From the NCBI GenBank assembly GCA_023484045.1, contig JAMDAA010000015.1, positions 8,659 to 72,658 on the forward strand: a stretch of DNA of 64,000 bases, read 5' to 3'. The notes under the pieces are model-generated. The model had not been told where the DNA came from, ran no database searches, and saw only the letters and a program-made list of their open reading frames with translations. This DNA is from Patescibacteria group bacterium. GTDB lineage: Bacteria > Patescibacteriota > Microgenomatia > Levybacterales > UBA12049. A program made the translations under genes and the position numbers. This document shows, piece by piece, positions 7,752-53,868 of this stretch; within the stretch, counting starts at the first letter, position 1, and each line of letters opens with the position of its first letter.

Positions 7752-8693
7752 GTGTTTAGTCGTCATTATTTAAAAGTTGATATTTGGTTTTTAAGATCCG
7801 CGTTGGCTTGGGTTTTGCTCGTTATCGCTTTATTGATGGTTCCGGTATCGGTAATTTTTTTCTGGTTAAGATTTACGATTTTAAATACCGATCAATTTGT
7901 CAAAACTTTAAGCCCGATCAGTAAAAATGTCTACATTATAGGATCTTTGTCTAATAATTTAAGTAAAAATTTTTTTCAGAATATCGACGCTGAAGGAAAA
8001 ATCAGAGAAGCTCTTCCCGATAAGGCTAAATTTTTAGCCCCGGTATTAACGTTGGAACTTAAAGGCTTTGTCGCAGAGGAAAGCAGGGTTATTTTGACGT
8101 CAAACGCTTTTAATAATGTTTGGACGAAAGTGTTAAAGACTGTTCACCCTAAAATTATTAATATTCTAACCGGCCGGGGGGATTTGAACGTTAATAATCA
8201 AGGAGAAGTAGTTTTGGATTTCTCAGATGCTGTTAGCAGGCTTCAAAAAACCCTTAATAATAAAGGGGTCACAATTTTTAACAATATTTCGATCGAACCG
8301 CAAGTGACTCTTTTTAAATCGGGGAAATTAGCCTATTTTAAAAGCATTCTTAATTTTATTTCTGTTCTCGGGATCGCTTTGCCTGTAATAGGGGTTTTAT
8401 TAATCATCGGCGCAATTTTTTCTTCTCTGAAACGTCTACAGTTTCTGTTTTGGGTTGGTATCGGGATATTAGTTTTTTCAGCGATTCTATTTTTTATAAT
8501 TCAAATCGGAGAAAGTTATTTTGTGAAAATGACAGGAGAGATCGACGCTAAAGCTGCAGGGGCGTTATATCAGATATTGACAGATTCTCTTAAAAAACTG
8601 TCGATCGAAATTAGTATTTCCGGTTTAATTATCGCCTTAGCTTCAAAATTTCTACCAAACAACCGGTTTATAAAAAGGTACTTGACAAAGTAA
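7752..8693 (+). CDS. Membrane protein (N-terminal TM, large extracytoplasmic region, C-terminal TMs), unknown
   Basis: 313-aa ORF co-oriented with its neighbours. No recognisable motif. Confidence 0.5.
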   Translation: MFSRHYLKVDIWFLRSALAWVLLVIALLMVPVSVIFFWLRFTILNTDQFVKTLSPISKNVYIIGSLSNNLSKNFFQNIDAEGKIREALPDKAKFLAPVLTLELKGFVAEESRVILTSNAFNNVWTKVLKTVHPKIINILTGRGDLNVNNQGEVVLDFSDAVSRLQKTLNNKGVTIFNNISIEPQVTLFKSGKLAYFKSILNFISVLGIALPVIGVLLIIGAIFSSLKRLQFLFWVGIGILVFSAILFFIIQIGESYFVKMTGEIDAKAAGALYQILTDSLKKLSIEISISGLIIALASKFLPNNRFIKRYLTK

Positions 8694-19611: not shown

Positions 19612-19686
19612 GGGCTCCGCAGCTAGGATTCGAACCTAGAACCTTGAAATTAACAGTTTCCTGCTCTACCGTTGAGCTACTGCGGA
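19612..19686 (-). tRNA. tRNA-Asn (anticodon GUU)
   Basis: Hand-folded on the minus strand: acceptor TCCGCAG/CTGCGGA, D-arm GCTC-AACGGTA-GAGC, anticodon loop CU-GUU-AA, T-arm CTAGG-TTCGAAT-CCTAG, discriminator G. No encoded CCA. Confidence 0.7.
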
Positions 19687-21936: not shown

Positions 21937-23293
21937 AAAGATTAATTCGATTTGTAACTCCTTCTGCTTTTACGGGAAAACTCTCCAATAACTTACAAGA
22001 TTTTAAAACCAAGTCTTTGTTAAAGATTTCGTCGATAACCTTTTCCTCAATACTTATTTGAGGATAAGATACTCCGTGAGAAATAATAATCGTCTTTTTT
22101 TGAACCGCTTTTTTTGTCAAAAATTCTTTGTCTAAAATTTTTTTGGTAAAAAAATATTCATGGGCATCTGTAACGCCTTGAAGAGGGGGGATTTTAGTAA
22201 CGTACAAAAGCGCAGGCGTTATATCATTGACACCGTATAAATAGTCGGGATTTTCCTTTCGAATCAATTGCACGATTTTTTCAAAATTTTCGACTTTTTG
22301 TAGATTTCTGTAACCGGAGAAATAAACAGAAATATTTATAAGAATAAAAATAGACACAATAAAAAGAATAATCGGTCTTTTAAAATTAAGCTTTTTTGTT
22401 AAAAAATTATAAAATTCGTAAAAAGAAAGACAAAGAAAAGGGACTAAAAAATTAAGATATAAATAATACACGTCCTGAAAACCGAAGAAAAAAATAATGG
22501 AAGAAATTGAGACTAACGCAAAAAAAGTACTTTTTCTAATATCCAGAAGATTAAATATCAATATCATAAAAAGTAGAAAATCCTTACTTATAAAAAACCA
22601 CGCAACCTCGTTTTTCATAATTCCGGAAGGTCGGGAAAGTGAAAATCCAAAAATATCTCCAAAAAATTCCTTCGGTGCAAAGATTAAAAATGGGAGAACG
22701 ACGATAAAACCAGTTACTATAAAAGCGATGGAAAAGTTAAATATTTTTTTGTAATTTTTCTGTAAAATTAGGTAAACGAAAAAAGAGAAAGCGATTGGAA
22801 TATAATATGCTTTGGTAAGAAATGATAAGGCCATAAATACTCCGGATAAAAAATATTTTTTCTCCTGAAGAAACAAAAAACCTAGCACTGCAAATAGTGA
22901 GGCGGTAAAAACTCCTGTTTGATGATCAGATGTAGACAGGACAATAAAAGAAAAAATGTAAAGCGCAGAGCTTGTTAATGAAAGAAGAATATCCTTTGTT
23001 TTTTTATAAGTTATAAAATAAATAAGAGTAGTTATAATCATTACTTCGATTGCGGATGTAATATAAAAAATTTCGATATTTTTATTAGTCAATAAATAAT
23101 ACAAAGAGGATATATAAGAGAAAAAGGGAAAATTTGAAAAGAAAATATCTCTGTAAAGCAATTTTCCCTGGAATATTTGATAAACATCATTAAAATAAAT
23201 ATTTGTGTCGGAAAGACGAACGCCAATGTTTAAAACTTTTATAACGAAAAAAAATCCTAAAAAGCCGATAAGAGGAACGAGGCCTTTCTTCAT
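21923..23293 (-). CDS. GT-C fold glycosyltransferase-like membrane protein (PMT_2/ArnT-like)
   Basis: Multi-TM. First loop 'YFNDVYQIFQGKLLYRDIF' is paralogous to 'YGDEGIYQVVGMGINNNRLLYRDIW' of 54212..55669. Soluble C-terminal domain. Confidence 0.55.
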   Translation of the reverse strand: MKKGLVPLIGFLGFFFVIKVLNIGVRLSDTNIYFNDVYQIFQGKLLYRDIFFSNFPFFSYISSLYYLLTNKNIEIFYITSAIEVMIITTLIYFITYKKTKDILLSLTSSALYIFSFIVLSTSDHQTGVFTASLFAVLGFLFLQEKKYFLSGVFMALSFLTKAYYIPIAFSFFVYLILQKNYKKIFNFSIAFIVTGFIVVLPFLIFAPKEFFGDIFGFSLSRPSGIMKNEVAWFFISKDFLLFMILIFNLLDIRKSTFFALVSISSIIFFFGFQDVYYLYLNFLVPFLCLSFYEFYNFLTKKLNFKRPIILFIVSIFILINISVYFSGYRNLQKVENFEKIVQLIRKENPDYLYGVNDITPALLYVTKIPPLQGVTDAHEYFFTKKILDKEFLTKKAVQKKTIIISHGVSYPQISIEEKVIDEIFNKDLVLKSCKLLESFPVKAEGVTNRINLFKCY

Positions 23294-24342
23294 TTTTTGA
23301 TTTTTAGAATTAACCAGCGAAGTTTATCTGCGATTTTATAAAATTGATAAGTAAAAGGTTTAATCACTAGGTCATAGCTTCCGACGAATTCGACGAGTCT
23401 TGGTCCGTATCCCTGTTTAAAACGGTGAAACCCAAACCATGGATCATTTGCGTCCGGGTTTGGTCCTAAAGATCCCCACATATCAAATTTTTTAAGTCCC
23501 ATTTTTTTACCAAATTTTATTACTTCCCACATCATTAAATTAGATGCCATAACTTCCCGGTTTTCACTCGACGACGCGCCGTATGGATAATATAAGGTAT
23601 CATGAAAAATAAAAACAATCCAGGCGGCGAGAATTTTTGAATTATATTTTGCCAAAAAAAGACGAGCAGTCAGTTTGTCTTCCGAAGGCTTGTCCTGAGT
23701 TTGTCGAAGAGTCTCCCACATTAACTTGTGATAATTTTCGTTATGGGCAAAAAATTTCTGCCTGCTTGTTGTTACTTTTGTGAGCCTTAGATATTCTTTA
23801 AACGCTTCTTCGGAATTATCTTCGATTATTTTGACATTATGTTTTTGAGCGACTCTAATGTTATAACGCGTTTTAGGATGCATATTTTTTAAAAGTTCAT
23901 CCTCTGATTTTGTTAAATCGAGCTGAAAAGTATATTTGGTAAATAAGGGATGAGCAGAAGGCCTAAGGCCTAAATTTACAATTTTTAATTTACTCGCCTC
24001 GCTTCGCGGGCGAAGCGGGCAATTTTTAATATTGTCGACGTTTGGCTCGAGTTGGATAAATATACAATTTTCCTCTTTCCCGATTCTTTTAAGTTCATCG
24101 AGAATTTCTTTATCCGGTAATTCTCCCTTTGGAAAATAGCCGATTGTCAGGTTTGTTTTTGGAGTCTTATGAACAGTCAGCTGGAAGCCCGATTTTAATT
24201 TATTTTTTTCATAAAATCCTTTTCTTATTACTTTAAGACCTGTTTTTTCCCGAAATTTTCCCCATTCAAAAGACTGAAGGGGATGGGTCACGATTTTATT
24301 AAATTCTTTTTTTTCTTTTTCGGTTATATTTATTATTTTCAT
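23290..24342 (-). CDS. FemAB-family peptidoglycan interpeptide-bridge peptidyltransferase-like protein
   Basis: 'THPLQSFEWGKFREKTG' matches the FemX/FemAB N-terminal 'FLQS.EWGE.K' motif. About 350 aa, typical for the family. Confidence 0.7.
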   Translation of the reverse strand: MKIINITEKEKKEFNKIVTHPLQSFEWGKFREKTGLKVIRKGFYEKNKLKSGFQLTVHKTPKTNLTIGYFPKGELPDKEILDELKRIGKEENCIFIQLEPNVDNIKNCPLRPRSEASKLKIVNLGLRPSAHPLFTKYTFQLDLTKSEDELLKNMHPKTRYNIRVAQKHNVKIIEDNSEEAFKEYLRLTKVTTSRQKFFAHNENYHKLMWETLRQTQDKPSEDKLTARLFLAKYNSKILAAWIVFIFHDTLYYPYGASSSENREVMASNLMMWEVIKFGKKMGLKKFDMWGSLGPNPDANDPWFGFHRFKQGYGPRLVEFVGSYDLVIKPFTYQFYKIADKLRWLILKIKK

Positions 24343-42235: not shown

Positions 42236-44014
42236 ATGGAACAAAATATCAGAAATTTTGCGATCGTGGCGCATATCGATCACGGTAAATCAACTCTAGC
42301 AGACAGGTTTTTGGAGATCACAAAAACTGTCTCTAAAGAAAAAATAATAAATCAATTTTTAGACCAAAATCCGATAAGCAGAGAACGCGGAATCACGATA
42401 AAGCTCGCGCCGGTTCGGATGAACTATGAATATAATGGCGTTAATTATATCCTAAATCTGATCGACACTCCCGGTCATGTTGATTTCTCTTACGAGGTGT
42501 CGCGAACCCTCGCGTGTTGTGAGGGCGTAATTCTATTGGTCGACGCAACGCAGGGGATTCAGGCTCAGACCGTTGCCCATTTCAATGCGGCAAAAAAACA
42601 AAATCTCGTTATAATCCCGGTTATAAATAAAATAGACATGCCAAACGCCCAAAGCAAAATCGTGGCAAAGGCGATGTGCAATATTTTTGGATTTAATGAA
42701 GAAGAGATTTTATATATTTCTGCAAAAACAGGAGAAAACACAGGCATTGTTTTAAAAAAAGTCGTTGAAAAAATTCCTGCACCAACGGGTAACAAAAATT
42801 TATCGCTTCGGGCGCTTGTTTTTGATGCGGTTTACGACGAACACAGGGGGGTTATCGCTTTTGTCCGGATCGTTGACGGGAATATAAAACATAGAGAAAA
42901 AATAAAACTTATTCAGGAAGAAACTTTAACCCAAGGGACGGAGGTTGGTTATTTCTCTCCTTTTCTCTCTCCGTCAGCCGAACTCAAAACAGGAGAGATA
43001 GGATATATAATAACAGGCGTAAAAGACATTCATGAATGTCGGGTCGGGGATACGATTACGAATTCAGAATTCCCCAGCCTCGCCAAGCGAAGCGGGGCGG
43101 GCAAAATTCAGAATTCAAAATTTGAAAAAGTAGAACCGTTGCCAGGTTACGAACCACCTAAACCCATGGTTTTCTTCGGTGTTTATCCTAAAAATCCCGA
43201 TGACTTTGTTCGTCTTAAAGAAGGATTGTCAAGACTTACTCTCAAAGATGCCTCACTCACTTTTTCCGAAGATTACTCATCTTTTTTAGGAAGCGGATTC
43301 AGAGTCGGTTTTTTAGGACTGCTGCATGCAGAGATTATTAAAGAAAGGCTGAAAAGGGAAGAAAAAGTCGAGCCGCTTTTAACTATCCCGCAAGTTTTGT
43401 ATAAGAAAAATCCCGATGGCTCGATGCTTGAGCCATATATTAGTTTATTGATTTATTCTCCGGTCGATTTTATCGGAAATATTATGTCTCTCTGCCAAAG
43501 AAGAAAAGGTAAGCTTATTAACACTTTATACCATGATACGTACGCGGTTTTGGAGTATGAACTACCGTATAGTATGTTTATAAGAGGGTTGTCATCGGAA
43601 TTAAAATCTGCATCTTCGGGATTTGCGAGTGTCGATTATGAGTTTATCGGTTTTAGAAGCGCAAATTTAATAAATTTAGAGATTATAATCAATGATCATC
43701 CGATCGATGTTTTATCGGAATATGTTTATAAAGATGAGGTTATTTATAAGGCCCGGGAAAAAACAGAAAAATTAAAAGAATTATTACCAAGACAACAGTT
43801 TAGACAAATTATCCAAGGTGTTATTGATGGAAAAATTATTGCGAGAGAAGAAATTCCGCCGTTCAGAAAAGATGTTGTCGCAAAACTTTCCGGAGGAGAC
43901 AGAACAAGAAAAGATAAACTCCTAAAAAAACAAAAGAAAGGAAAGAGAAGGTTGGAAAATTATTCAAAAGTTAACTTACCACAAGAAGCCCTGCTTTCTT
44001 TTTTGGAGAAATAG
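42236..44014 (+). CDS. lepA: Elongation factor 4 (LepA)
   Basis: 'FAIVAHIDHGKSTLADR', 'NLIDTPGHVDFSYEVSR', 'NKIDMP'. LepA-specific C-terminal domain. Confidence 0.95.
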   Translation: MEQNIRNFAIVAHIDHGKSTLADRFLEITKTVSKEKIINQFLDQNPISRERGITIKLAPVRMNYEYNGVNYILNLIDTPGHVDFSYEVSRTLACCEGVILLVDATQGIQAQTVAHFNAAKKQNLVIIPVINKIDMPNAQSKIVAKAMCNIFGFNEEEILYISAKTGENTGIVLKKVVEKIPAPTGNKNLSLRALVFDAVYDEHRGVIAFVRIVDGNIKHREKIKLIQEETLTQGTEVGYFSPFLSPSAELKTGEIGYIITGVKDIHECRVGDTITNSEFPSLAKRSGAGKIQNSKFEKVEPLPGYEPPKPMVFFGVYPKNPDDFVRLKEGLSRLTLKDASLTFSEDYSSFLGSGFRVGFLGLLHAEIIKERLKREEKVEPLLTIPQVLYKKNPDGSMLEPYISLLIYSPVDFIGNIMSLCQRRKGKLINTLYHDTYAVLEYELPYSMFIRGLSSELKSASSGFASVDYEFIGFRSANLINLEIIINDHPIDVLSEYVYKDEVIYKAREKTEKLKELLPRQQFRQIIQGVIDGKIIAREEIPPFRKDVVAKLSGGDRTRKDKLLKKQKKGKRRLENYSKVNLPQEALLSFLEK

Positions 44015-45559: not shown

Positions 45560-46606
45560 ATGATTAAAAGGTTTTTTATCAGGAGAAATATTTTGATTGC
45601 CTTGGCATTTCTAGCAATTCTTTTTATTGGTTTTCGGGTGTATCCATCTTTTTCGAGCGCAGCCCGGGAGGAAACGATCGAAGTAAAAAGAGATACTATT
45701 ATGCAGAGAGTAACTGCTTCCGGAGAAATCAAATCCGAAGACGAAGTCGAGCTAAAATTTCCAGTGAGTGGGAAATTAGTTTATCTCGCAGTTGAAAAAA
45801 ATGAGCCGGTTAAAAAAGGAAGTTATATCGCCTCTTTAGACAAAGAAAAACTAGAAGCAAGCTTACGACAAGCCTGGCAAGATTTTACCGCTGCCAAAGC
45901 CGAATCCGAAAAAGTTTACGACGAACTTAAAAGAAAAGTAGACGAATCTTTTGACGAAAAAATAAGAAGGACAGCCGTAGATGCAAAACAGAATAAAGCC
46001 TATGACTCGATTAAAAAAGCAGAACAAGATTTAAAAGACGCCGATTTATACTCGCCGATTACAGGAGTTGTCACCAAAGTTTATGTTCAAGCGGGAACAG
46101 GAATTACCAATACCACTTCCATTGTCACGATCGCAAATCCGAATAACATGGTTTTTTTAGCAAGGGTAGGCGAATCGGATATTGGCGATGTTTCGATTGG
46201 TCAAGAAGCTTCGGTTGCCCTCGACGCTTTTGAAGGGAAAACGTTTAAAGGGCATGTTTCCGAAATCGACTATGCAGCAACAGTTAACGGCGGCAAAAGC
46301 TATCTTGTCAAAATTGTTTTAGAAGACCTTACTAAAGTAAAACTCGATATGAGCGGAGACGCAGAAATAATAACGGTTTCTCGTCCCGATGCCTTAATTA
46401 TTCCGCGAAGCGCAGTCCAAGAAAAAAACGGCCCCACTTCGCCAGGGCTTCGCGGGGCAAGCAAAAAATACGTCGAGATTTTGGAAGGAAAAAACACCAG
46501 ACAAAAGGAAATAACAACCGGCATAAAAGGTACCGGCGGAGTTGTCGAGATTCTTTCGGGACTTGATGTTTTTGAGAAAGTAATAGTTCCAAAACCTGCA
46601 AAATAG
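45560..46606 (+). CDS. Efflux periplasmic adaptor (HlyD/MacA family)
   Basis: N-terminal TM, biotinyl/lipoyl-like hairpins ('SGEIKSEDEVELKFPVSGKL', 'DLYSPITGVVTKVYVQAG'), long coiled coil. Confidence 0.75.
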   Translation: MIKRFFIRRNILIALAFLAILFIGFRVYPSFSSAAREETIEVKRDTIMQRVTASGEIKSEDEVELKFPVSGKLVYLAVEKNEPVKKGSYIASLDKEKLEASLRQAWQDFTAAKAESEKVYDELKRKVDESFDEKIRRTAVDAKQNKAYDSIKKAEQDLKDADLYSPITGVVTKVYVQAGTGITNTTSIVTIANPNNMVFLARVGESDIGDVSIGQEASVALDAFEGKTFKGHVSEIDYAATVNGGKSYLVKIVLEDLTKVKLDMSGDAEIITVSRPDALIIPRSAVQEKNGPTSPGLRGASKKYVEILEGKNTRQKEITTGIKGTGGVVEILSGLDVFEKVIVPKPAK

Positions 46607-47838: not shown

Positions 47839-48549
47839 ATGGAAAAATCAAATCTCAAAACTCAAAGATCAAAAATAAACAATATAATTAAAGTAGAAAA
47901 TCTTAAAAAAATTTATCCCGGTAGAGTTCCAACACCAGCGTTAAAAGGTGTCTCTTTTGACGTGAAAGCGGGAGAATTTATCGCGATTATGGGGCGAAGT
48001 GGCTCTGGTAAATCAACCCTTCTTCACCAACTGGGGTTAATCGATACACCAACCGAAGGGCAAATTCTTATTAATGACACTGATGTTTTAAAACTTTCTG
48101 ATTCAGGAAAAACTTTATATCGTCTGCAAAACTTAGGCTATGTATTTCAGGAATACGCGTTAATCGCAGAACTAACAGCTTTAGAAAATGTGTATTTACC
48201 GGCATTTGCTTTGGGTGGAAACAATGATGGCTATAAAAAACGGGCCCAAGAAATGTTGGAAATTGTCGGCTTAGGCGAGCGGGTAGACCATTATCCCAAT
48301 GAACTCTCGGGCGGTGAACAACAAAGAGTCGCTATTGCCAGAGCGCTTATTAACAAACCCAAAATACTTTTTGCCGACGAGCCCTGTGCAAATCTTGACA
48401 GCGTTTCCTCAAAAGTCGTTTTAGAGTTATTCAAAAAACTGAATAAGGAGTTAGGACAAACTATTGTCATGGTCACACACGAACCGGAAGATGAGAAGTT
48501 TGTCGACAGAGTAATCTGGATGAGAGATGGGCTTTCGGAGTCCCCGTAA
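47839..48549 (+). CDS. ABC transporter ATP-binding protein (MacB/LolD type)
   Basis: Walker A 'GRSGSGKSTLL', signature 'LSGGEQQRVAIARAL', Walker B 'ILFADEP'. Confidence 0.9.
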   Translation: MEKSNLKTQRSKINNIIKVENLKKIYPGRVPTPALKGVSFDVKAGEFIAIMGRSGSGKSTLLHQLGLIDTPTEGQILINDTDVLKLSDSGKTLYRLQNLGYVFQEYALIAELTALENVYLPAFALGGNNDGYKKRAQEMLEIVGLGERVDHYPNELSGGEQQRVAIARALINKPKILFADEPCANLDSVSSKVVLELFKKLNKELGQTIVMVTHEPEDEKFVDRVIWMRDGLSESP

Positions 48550-48989: not shown

Positions 48990-49043
48990 CGTCTAGGAAT
49001 TAGCGTTCAGTGACTAGTTTTAATAACTAAACGCTAGACGCTA
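48987..49043 (+). other. groES-groEL intercistronic imperfect hairpin (TAGCGTCTAG..TAGCGTT / AACGCTAGACGCTA)
   Basis: The 10-bp perfect inverted repeat TAGCGTCTAG/CTAGACGCTA plus an inner 7-bp repeat starts at the groES stop codon. Confidence 0.4.
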
Positions 49044-49058
49044 AAAACTAAAAGCTAA

Positions 49059-50717
<1,659 letters not shown>

Positions 50718-50757
50718 AAAAGATCAAAAATCAAACCTCAAAAATCAAAACTGATAA

Positions 50758-52799: not shown

Positions 52800-53868
52800 C
52801 TTTCTCCAAACTAAGATGTAAAAAAAGCAATAGTCCTCCGACGAGTACGATTAACATTAATATTGTAAAAATTTTCCCCTGGCTCGTTAAGCTCAGAGAA
52901 ATCGTTCCTAATATAGCAGAAATAACCCAGTAAAACAACGCGATCTGTCTTTGCCCAAAGCCTAAACTTAAAAGAATGTGATGAAGATGTTTATTATCGT
53001 GCCAGAAAGGTGATTTGCCGGAAAAAATTCTTCGAAGAATTGTGAATACCCCGTCGATCATCGGGATTCCCATAACAAGAATTGCCGTCGCGAGTTTTGC
53101 GCCGGATAGCATCGACGTTGCGGCCAAAAGTAGGTATAAAGAAGTAGCGCCATACCCAGGGAAAATTTTTGCAGGATAAAAATTAAAAATTAAAAAACCT
53201 AAACTAGCGCCTGCGATCGCAAAAGACAGGTTTGCCGAGATAAAGGTATCTTGTTCTGATATCGGAAAACGCAAACTTAAGATTCCGATCACGATCGCCG
53301 AGATTGCGACGATTCCGGGCATTTGTCCATCCACTCCTTTACTCCAATTTAACATGTTCATAACCCACGTGATCCAAAAAAGAGCGATTATATCGGCGAG
53401 CGATATCGTTAGACTCGCTCCTAAAAAAGACAGTGTCGTGTTTATCGAATCGAAATGAAGAATTCCGCCCGCAGGATTTGTTATAAAAGGTATGGTTATG
53501 CCGCTTGCGACTACCATCAGAGAAACAGCGATGTTTACAAAAAATCTTAAATATGGAGACAGATCAAATTTATCGTCTAAAACACCGATGACAAGCGCAA
53601 TAAAAGATGCAGAAAACAAAATTAACGTAGTTTGATTTAATGGGAGGAATATTATTCCGGCGACAAGAACTCCGAAAAAAAGCGGGATGCCACCGCCTCT
53701 TGGAATCGGTTTTTTATGAATAACGCCCGGATGTTTGTGTGTTTTTGGGTCGTCGACGATATTTAATTTTTTAAGAAAATAAATACAAATTGGCGTTATG
53801 AATACGGTTACGAAAAAAGCGACTAATAACGGTAGCACAAGAGAAAGATTATTACCGACGATTTGCAT
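52780..53868 (-). CDS. Polyprenyl-phosphate N-acetylhexosamine-1-phosphate transferase (WecA/MraY family)
   Basis: 'NIVDDPKTHKHPGVIHKKPIPRGGG', 'GVLDDKFDLSP', 'HLHHIL' (carbohydrate-recognition and HHH motifs of PNPT enzymes). Confidence 0.8.
   Translation of the reverse strand: MQIVGNNLSLVLPLLVAFFVTVFITPICIYFLKKLNIVDDPKTHKHPGVIHKKPIPRGGGIPLFFGVLVAGIIFLPLNQTTLILFSASFIALVIGVLDDKFDLSPYLRFFVNIAVSLMVVASGITIPFITNPAGGILHFDSINTTLSFLGASLTISLADIIALFWITWVMNMLNWSKGVDGQMPGIVAISAIVIGILSLRFPISEQDTFISANLSFAIAGASLGFLIFNFYPAKIFPGYGATSLYLLLAATSMLSGAKLATAILVMGIPMIDGVFTILRRIFSGKSPFWHDNKHLHHILLSLGFGQRQIALFYWVISAILGTISLSLTSQGKIFTILMLIVLVGGLLLFLHLSLEKDEKEII

Follow-up and report, generated by a model that had tools for sequence, protein, structure and literature searches.

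A probable translated copy of a 30-nt palindromic repeat of candidate phyla radiation bacteria within a heptanucleotide array of lepA

The lepA gene of a Patescibacteria group bacterium (NCBI GenBank assembly GCA_023484045.1, contig JAMDAA010000015.1) contains a short GC-rich segment in a loop of its product, the translational GTPase LepA or elongation factor 4 (EF4). We studied this segment in a stretch of 64,000 nucleotides (positions 8,659 to 72,658 of the forward strand of the contig), hereafter the window, to which all unprefixed coordinates refer. The GC-rich core is probably a near-consensus copy of a 30-nt palindromic repeat of the bacteria of the candidate phyla radiation (CPR), lodged as an in-frame, translated passenger in a pre-existing array of heptanucleotides. 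The case is built on its membership in a dispersed family, the prior existence of its flanks, a clean presence/absence difference between close relatives, the recurrence of other cores in the same loop and its location in a region of predicted disorder.

A preliminary description, drawn from the letters of the window, had pointed to two direct repeats of AATTCAGAATTC around a GC-rich core in lepA, and the sequence is exactly as it said. The 12-mer lies on the plus strand at 43061-43072 and 43105-43116, its sole two exact occurrences in the window, and 32 GC-rich bases separate the copies in a window that averages ~35% GC. Their spacing, 44 nt, is not divisible by 3, and translation runs through them in two frames (NSEF and IQNS). 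Since first-order Markov simulations give ~0.9 exact 12-mers repeated within 60 nt per window (six such loci were observed), a repeat of this kind is unremarkable alone; the GC core is far beyond chance, with 0 expected matches to the pattern GCCTCGCNNNGCGAAGCGGG.

The preliminary description took the core between its direct repeats as one unit. That a GC core was inserted holds, whereas the 12-mers turn out to belong to a pre-existing array, and the inserted unit is 43072-43101 alone (plus strand). This is the imperfect palindrome CCCCAGCCTCGCCAAGCGAAGCGGGGCGGG, which encodes (F)PSLAKRSGAG and is delimited by a 29/30 match to the family consensus, its hairpin fold and the reading frame kept on its removal. 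Upstream, at 43061-43071 (plus strand), the sequence and the coreless arrays of loci L003 and L247 mark AATT plus CAGAATT, the first half of the left AATTCAGAATTC, as part of the heptamer array. The downstream part at 43102-43122 (plus strand), CAAAATT CAGAATT CAAAATT, holds the right AATTCAGAATTC; it is recognized by the flank profile of the family and by Tandem Repeats Finder (period 7, 3.0 copies). The layout in the window is thus AATT CAGAATT ^core^ CAAAATT CAGAATT CAAAATT, and cutting out the 30 nt leaves an in-frame GDTIT-NSEFKIQNSKFEKVEP-LPGY. The 30-mer folds into a hairpin of -8.7 kcal/mol as DNA and, with its flanks, of -20.6 kcal/mol as RNA. A strand-specific hairpin, with G-U pairs on one strand, was considered and dropped, as both strands fold about equally. 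An Rfam 15 scan of the window gave no match for the core, its sole hit being a tRNA at 19615-19686, and a simple terminator scan flagged the lepA copy on neither strand; an antisense intrinsic terminator, formed by the hairpin and the U-rich reverse of the array, would be speculation.

The host gene, lepA (42236-44014, plus strand, 592 codons), was established from the open reading frame (ORF) list, Pfam and structure alignment. Its product displays the five-domain architecture of EF4, including the unique LepA C-terminal domain, with all Pfam scores above the cut-offs (GTP_EFTU 4-181, GTP_EFTU_D2 205-275, EFG_III 308-379, EFG_C 397-477, LepA_C 485-590). It aligns collinearly and at full length across all five domains with the canonical EF4 structures of E. 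coli (3CB4), Aquifex (2YWE) and Thermus (5IMQ/4W2E), with 39-45% class identity and E-values of 1e-142 to 1e-159, the latter against Aquifex LepA. Relative to it, canonical EF4 has 17 residues fewer in the linker that follows the domain II strand GDT(I/L)T. In the alignment to 2YWE and 5IMQ, the difference is one large insertion, uninterrupted by gaps and exactly 17 residues long, that comes right behind the conserved GDTIT, where the stretch encodes GDTIT-NSEFPSLAKRSGAGKIQNSKFEKVEP-LPGY. The preliminary description had given a shortfall of 15-17 residues in canonical LepA and had proposed that the in-frame GC-rich insertion coincides with an extra loop; both are borne out by the structures. 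The 17 extra residues are composite, with 10 from the core and ~7 from three heptamer units.

The enlarged loop comprises 26 residues (N276-P301; 43061-43138, plus strand) from the end of domain II to the start of domain III, as delimited by the ORF, the homologue alignment, Pfam and AlphaFold. The core codes for residues 280-289, and the loop falls between the Pfam end of domain II (275) and the start of EFG_III (308), which places the insertion site between domains II and III. Among 109 close LepA homologues, the loop has the canonical 8 residues in 28 and 13 residues in 29, with further classes at 15 (n=11) and 21 residues (n=9) and a maximum of 34; that of the window protein measures 26 residues between GDT(I/V)T and LPGY. 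An AlphaFold2 model built from these 109 homologues is confident overall (mean predicted local distance difference test, pLDDT, 82.8), with values <50 at residues 282-296. This low-confidence stretch lies between the last strand of domain II (273-276) and the first strand of domain III (312-318), and the peptide predicted across the translated insert reads ...NSEFPSLAKRSGAGKIQNSK... The insert is therefore predicted to be a disordered addition to a surface-exposed linker between the two domains, and such a linker would explain why it is tolerated and why the same spot has been hit repeatedly.

In this lineage, the array flanking the core would already have encoded an enlarged EF4 loop before the core came. 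The longer LepA loops show a 7-residue pseudo-repeat (e.g., NSEFRIQNSEFTP, ISNIKNQISNIEP and QIQNSKFKIQNS), which at the DNA level corresponds to heptanucleotide tandem arrays. The organism of the window is close to Levybacteria, and related lepA genes of that group show such arrays on their own: L003 has ACA(AATTCAG)4.6, encoding NSEFRIQNSEF, and L247 has (CAAAATT)5, both without a GC core. Thus, the AATTCAGAATTC copies are pieces of an array and not insertion scars. The alignment of LepA orthologues upholds the enlargement of the loop (26 residues versus 8 in the canonical form) claimed in the preliminary description, and it detaches the repeats from the core, as they occur in orthologues without one.

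We also observed that the loop lengths after GDTIT in the LepA homologues P0001-P0120 cluster at 6/8, 13/15 and 21-23 residues, in steps of 7 residues (21 nt or three heptamers). The heptamer varies by lineage (AATTCAG, CAAAATT, CAACTYT, CAAATCT) and is homogeneous inside each lepA gene, which suggests a microsatellite-like concerted evolution of this coding loop.

The loop is also a site at which cores vary in presence and kind. The lepA genes of L004 and L005, with 93.8% DNA identity, differ by one 21-nt core, CTCGCCTCGCGGCGAAGCGGG, of a second type named after its CTC motif; this indel involves no duplication and leaves the heptamer number unchanged. The proteins P0003, P0024, P0044, P0064, P0070 and P0093 carry differing cores in this loop. 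By lineage, the window has a 30-nt core of the type named after its CCCCG start, L245 and L005 have 21-nt CTC-type cores, L246 has a CCCTCC-type 30-mer, L002 and L004 have 42-mers and L006 has a 33-mer. Every one of these cores sits at a T^CAA junction and has a length that is a multiple of 3. Further, a Taylorbacteria LepA (L070 1896-1916, MHSF01000020.1), 39% identical, has a 21-nt CTC-type core in the same loop (VGDTIISAD-SPRGEAG-KNLPPLEGY), one of the 52 copies of that type from the genome scan described below. As this LepA lacks any heptamer array, the permissive site was evidently hit independently there.

The lepA core belongs, as one of many copies, to a widely dispersed repeat family, a fact beyond the reach of a reading of a single sequence. 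We scanned metagenomes with the pattern GCCTCGCN{0,6}GCGAAGCGGGGCGGGCAA, i.e., GCCTCGC followed by 0-6 bases and GCGAAGCGGGGCGGGCAA, and recovered at least 123 copies in at least 120 loci, on low-GC contigs whose samples came from groundwater, sediment and the like. The fractions that follow for this family hold among the matches listed. The identical 28-mer of lepA is present in 80 of the 123, and a left extension CCCCG, absent from the search pattern, in 110 of them. They yield the 30-nt consensus CCCCGGCCTCGCCAAGCGAAGCGGGGCGGG, followed by CAA, to which the window copy conforms at 29 of 30 bases. The family as defined in the present analysis (CCCCGGCCTCGC-CAA-GCGAAGCGGGGCGGG, then CAA, 30 nt) thus includes the window copy. 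Length is nearly invariant, with exactly 30 nt in 105 of 109 non-redundant copies. Heptamer repeats of consensus CAAAWTT abut 66 of 104 copies, usually with 2 units upstream and 2-3 downstream; the window copy, likewise, lies at a T^CAA junction inside a (CAAAWTT)n array. A T stands at position -1 in 73% of the copies with arrays and in 87% of those without.

These copies are found both between and within genes: 46 of 109 (42%) lie inside long ORFs. The intragenic ones occupy all three sense-strand frames (12/15/16), with 3 antisense, and all 46 are open in the frame of the host gene; the three-frame peptides of the 30-mer are PRPRQAKRGGQ, PGLAKRSGAGK and PASPSEAGRA. The sense bias within ORFs could be explained by selection, because, going by the sequence, each junction between units of the reverse complement (AAWTTTG)n creates a TGA. 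The G-rich strand carries a modest excess of the copies (52/80 and 34/50). The 64 kb of this genome in the window hold one CCCCG-type and one CTC-type copy, and some loci of 8-15 kb hold two copies (L196, L197, L041, L116). The copies without arrays are mostly a TCC-loop variant at the apex of larger inverted repeats.

In twelve loci (L136, L140, L141, L146, L152, L170, L179, L190, L223, L233, L239 and L242) the TCC-loop variant was observed within a larger inverted repeat, CCCCTCCC...GGGAGGGG, with a conserved stretch, caccctccccttcatcccctccc, upstream, which suggests that it is part of a larger composite repeat element. In L132 (119-175), a CCCCG-type core is directly followed by a core of the kind TCTCGCGCCGCCGGCATAGCCTCTGGCGA... 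seen in the L006 lepA loop (L006 3835-3870); different core families can therefore adjoin, as in L005.

A second member lies elsewhere in the window, at 23993-24019 (plus strand), in a femAB-like ORF (23290-24342, minus strand) to which it is antisense. The preliminary description had noted that the lepA core shares sequence with an insert in this gene, and the related motif is real: a 27-nt core, CTCGCCTCGCTTCGCGGGCGAAGCGGG, followed by CAA, which encodes CPLRPRSEA and is flanked by CAATTTTTAAT repeats. Its match to the CTC-type consensus, CTCGCCTCGC-(1-10 nt)-GCGAAGCGGG followed by CAA, places it in a sister subfamily. In a scan of GTDB genomes, a CTC/CTT extension that was not in the pattern was present in 50 of 52 matches from low-GC loci versus 7 of 68 from high-GC genomes (Fisher p = 1.6e-23), the latter being chance matches. 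The copies are 21 or 30 nt long in 45 of the 52, and their records bear in their titles the names of at least 13 CPR candidate phyla (Levy-, Roizman-, Saccharibacteria, Nomura-, Giovannoni-, Kuenen-, Komeili-, Berkel-, Portnoy-, Taylor-, Specht-, Buchananbacteria and Parcubacteria), with a few bins labelled otherwise. By eye, the 30-nt CTC-type mixes compensatory with non-compensatory changes in its central stem, the outer stems being fixed by the search pattern. The equivalent loop of FemAB homologues spans 26-54 residues with a mode of 30; the window protein has exactly 9 residues (27 nt) more, and coreless homologues already carry the 7-residue flanking repeat, as IENLKFKIEN. A phage origin was also considered and rejected, as a collection of viral contigs held no match to the CTC-type pattern.

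The same FemAB loop, between IQLEPN and AHPLF in the homologues P0123-P0239, shows other recurrent peptides, e.g., HSGEEQSDDSRIDSGQARMTE and SELVSES...MLNQVQHD, which resemble translated copies of further repeat families. At 46429-46459, in a HlyD-like ORF (45560-46606, plus strand), lies a third GC-rich island, GGCCCCACTTCGCCAGGGCTTCGCGGGGCA with AGC after it, which encodes GPTSPGLRGAS. It has A-rich flanks and ends in ...GGGGCAA, and it remained a singleton in the clustering of GC islands; this clustering, by single linkage on 11-mers of the islands in low-GC loci, joined 449 of them in a single chained cluster and gave no useful grouping. The window further holds coreless heptanucleotide arrays at 47843-47876, 49027-49060, 50719-50750 and 53177-53196. 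They include a (CAAANNT)4.9 array at the N-terminus of the ORF after an FtsX-like gene, a (CTAAAAG)4.9 array just upstream of a groEL-like start and a (CAAAAAT)4.6 array just past the groEL-like stop. All tandem repeats of the window with >4.5 copies have a period of 7, save one weak 5-nt array at 1206-1234.

Taken as a sequence of events, the 30-nt palindrome would have entered at a T^CAA junction in a (CAGAATT/CAAAATT)n array that already encoded an enlarged EF4 loop. The insertion would have been clean, with no target-site duplication, a length that is a multiple of 3 and no stop codon, and for that reason would simply be translated, adding PSLAKRSGAG, which EF4 presumably tolerates in the disordered linker between domains II and III. 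The inserted peptide would then have no required function and would represent neutral or selfish passenger DNA. As to how cores move, our favoured though doubtful guess is that a trans-acting HUH/Y1 enzyme of the RAYT (REP-associated tyrosine transposase) or IS200-like kind performs a hairpin-dependent single-strand cut-and-paste or copying. Such an enzyme would insert without duplication beside a short target, TTG on the opposite strand; the seamless gain and loss, the fixed junction and the hairpin make for the likeness to HUH/Y1 single-strand systems. It might be speculated, too, that an interrupting core stabilizes a frameshift-prone microsatellite in an ORF, which might explain its mid-array position.

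Several observations weigh against this account. An empty-site allele of the window's own lepA gene was not found, and the closest relative (P0002, 85% identical) has an 8-residue loop with neither array nor core, so that the order of events is drawn from more distant homologues. In tblastn searches of 1.7 Mb of element-bearing loci (~8 kb per genome) with IS200, IS608 and RAYT queries, no mobilizing enzyme was identified; the only transposase-like signal was a weak RAYT match in L023 (181-564, minus strand; 23% identity, E = 7e-4), ~7 kb from the core and not adjacent to it. To our knowledge, a single hairpin of 21-30 nt is below the size of any known HUH/Y1 substrate. The stability of the hairpin is similar on both strands and just modestly better than that of shuffles. 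The CAA was built into the search patterns, and the universal 3' CAA junction is hence partly imposed. Finally, the 30-mer is extremely conserved from phylum to phylum, and core lengths are divisible by 3 outside ORFs as well; either could mean an unrecognized function.

Among the rival explanations, the most obvious is that a classical transposon or miniature inverted-repeat transposable element (MITE) inserted here and left the two AATTCAGAATTC copies as its target-site duplication. It draws on the exact 12-nt direct repeats around the GC-rich palindrome in lepA, on the femAB copy likewise lying between CAATTTTTAAT repeats and on the abutting 14-nt direct repeats in 66 of 104 listed copies. 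However, the same repeats occur in the coreless L003 and L247 and in FemAB homologues, the net gain is exactly 30 nt in lepA and 27 nt in femAB, the 21-nt core difference between L004 and L005 is without duplication, and flanking repeats are missing from about a third of the listed copies and from the Taylorbacteria lepA copy. Moreover, the repeat periods of 44 (lepA) and 41 nt (femAB) are not multiples of 3, so that a core plus a duplication would break the reading frame. We therefore reject target-site duplication, which is highly improbable. The setting of the core, a GC-rich hairpin flanked by matching sequences within an AT-rich gene, also recalls programmed translational bypass, a hop as in T4 gene 60 or the mitochondrial 'byp' elements, with the direct repeats as take-off and landing sites; bypass-type GC clusters are described for yeast mitochondria (PMC8811140). 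We reject this on reading-frame grounds as hardly credible: the insert has no stop and keeps the frame of the conserved LPGY...KPMVF downstream, a hop from TTC (43070-72) to TTC (43114-16) skips 44 nt and meets a TGA two codons on, and all 46 intragenic listed copies are open in the host frame. That the window comes from a metagenome-assembled genome and that tandem heptamers are slippage-prone might raise the suspicion of an assembly or sequencing artefact, or of a GC-rich hairpin made de novo by slippage or snap-back synthesis. Against the former stand identical cores with unique flanks in independent NCBI, JGI, ENA and Logan assemblies and a gene that stays in frame; as a de novo origin cannot yield a 29/30 match to a consensus seen >100 times, the probability we give this explanation is next to nil.

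An adaptive origin, in which the loop is a lineage-specific functional extension of EF4 (e.g., one contacting the ribosome or the membrane) and not mobile DNA, would fit the enlargement of the loop in most Levybacteria-like LepA proteins (13, 15 or 21 residues versus 8), the basic residues (K, R) of the insert and its site on a ribosome-contacting translational GTPase. Yet the same 30-mer recurs in >100 unrelated loci, coding and non-coding and in all three frames, the closest relative has a plain loop of 8 residues, unrelated cores stand at the same spot in orthologues and the region is predicted to be disordered, so that we consider this very improbable. The main alternative concerns the mobility step only: cores might spread by short-homology recombination (gene conversion, template switching, or uptake of single-stranded DNA with oligo-like incorporation at the replication fork), with the AT-rich heptamer arrays as homology arms. 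The strong link between cores and (CAAAWTT)n arrays, the lack of target duplication and near-identical cores in many candidate phyla, consistent with horizontal spread, speak for it, as do the competence genes that CPR bacteria carry and the failure of tblastn, with IS200, IS608 and RAYT queries, to find a transposase near the copies. On the other hand, heptamers differ between loci (CAAATTT, CAAAAAT, CAAATTA, CAAAACT and others), and homology arms would thus often be mismatched; array-free copies exist, some in unique sequence and some at the tip of other inverted repeats; and the base-precise junction (T^core^CAA) better fits site-specific cleavage. We regard recombination as an unlikely route. 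A translated passenger in a pre-existing array remains our preferred explanation for the lepA core.

Comparison with known systems points to several likenesses of kind. The Rickettsia palindromic elements are selfish repeats of ~150 bp that lie in frame in unrelated conserved genes and are translated in a fold-compatible manner (PMC10969869). Like them, the lepA core is a palindromic, apparently selfish repeat of a reduced AT-rich genome, inserted in frame and free of stops in a gene for a conserved protein. Unlike them, with their ~100-150 bp and one conserved peptide, the CPR element has 21-42 nt (30 in lepA) and is read in three frames, is usually inside heptanucleotide arrays and shares no sequence similarity with them. 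The GC clusters of yeast mitochondria comprise many variable families with AT-rich flanks and include strain-polymorphic in-frame insertions in var1 (PMC8811140). They, too, are short GC-rich palindromes inserted in frame in a very AT-rich genome, but they are organellar and have terminal AG/TAG repeats regarded as target duplications; the flanks of the CPR element pre-exist, without duplication, and the sequences are unrelated.

The REP (repetitive extragenic palindromic) sequences and their REPIN doublets are imperfect palindromes, non-autonomous and dispersed in many copies, which are mobilized by RAYT (Y1) transposases (PMC3116915 and PMC3337134). The CPR element resembles them as an imperfect palindrome of 20-40 nt that needs no terminal inverted repeats or target duplication. 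REP sequences are, however, extragenic by definition, whereas 46 of 109 listed copies lie in long ORFs and the lepA and femAB copies are intragenic; they have a 5' GTAG and form inverted doublets, whereas the CPR copies are single hairpins starting with CCCCG or CTCGCC; and they have a linked RAYT gene, whereas the CPR loci gave one weak, non-adjacent match to a RAYT query. The 'peel and paste' elements of the IS200/IS605 kind are similarly seamless, free of target duplication and hairpin-dependent, with a fixed short sequence beside the insertion. The T^...^CAA junction would correspond to a position 3' of TTG on the other strand, and the strand bias is modest. As IS200/IS605 elements have two different subterminal hairpins and TnpA, and the CPR element has one hairpin of 21-30 nt with no TnpA detected by tblastn in the 1.7 Mb of loci, the likeness is one of mechanism only. 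MITEs differ by their target-site duplication, which is absent here (the clean 21-nt indel between L004 and L005; flanks that pre-exist in empty orthologues), and by their ~50-500 bp with the terminal inverted repeats of a parent insertion sequence, compared to cores of 21-42 nt with no parent seen. In bypass elements of the gene 60/byp kind the insert breaks the frame and is skipped, whereas that of lepA is open and in frame.

A literature search, mostly of open-access full text, covered the exact 26-mers and the encoded peptides and turned up no account of the element in CPR bacteria; a widespread family of ultra-short elements, together with loops encoded by heptamer arrays in CPR proteins, is apparently undescribed. 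It is conceivable, and we propose it tentatively, that they form a distinct class of ultra-short, GC-rich palindromic mobile elements of CPR bacteria. These would be 21-42 nt long, always a multiple of 3, near-invariant across many candidate phyla, seamless at T^CAA with a preference for the middle of (CAAAWTT)n arrays, and routinely translated, generating with the arrays lineage-specific surface loops such as those of EF4 and FemX. They may also stabilize slippage-prone arrays or may depend on an enzyme yet to be found.

The lepA gene of this organism is intact, and its odd segment would be a tolerated passenger in a disordered inter-domain linker. More generally, palindromes of 21-30 nt and heptanucleotide arrays recur in and between genes across many CPR phyla and underlie hypervariable loops of at least two conserved proteins, EF4 and FemAB/FemX. 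If these palindromes are truly undescribed, no smaller in-frame selfish element would be known from bacteria. They would also be both a practical marker and a confounder for the annotation, alignment and phylogenomics of CPR bacteria, the latter because the family creates spurious low-complexity peptides (e.g., PGLAKRSGAG and LASLKLRRSGQ). Further, they would offer a tractable system for studying the movement of hairpin elements that leave no duplication, in organisms whose genomes are tiny.

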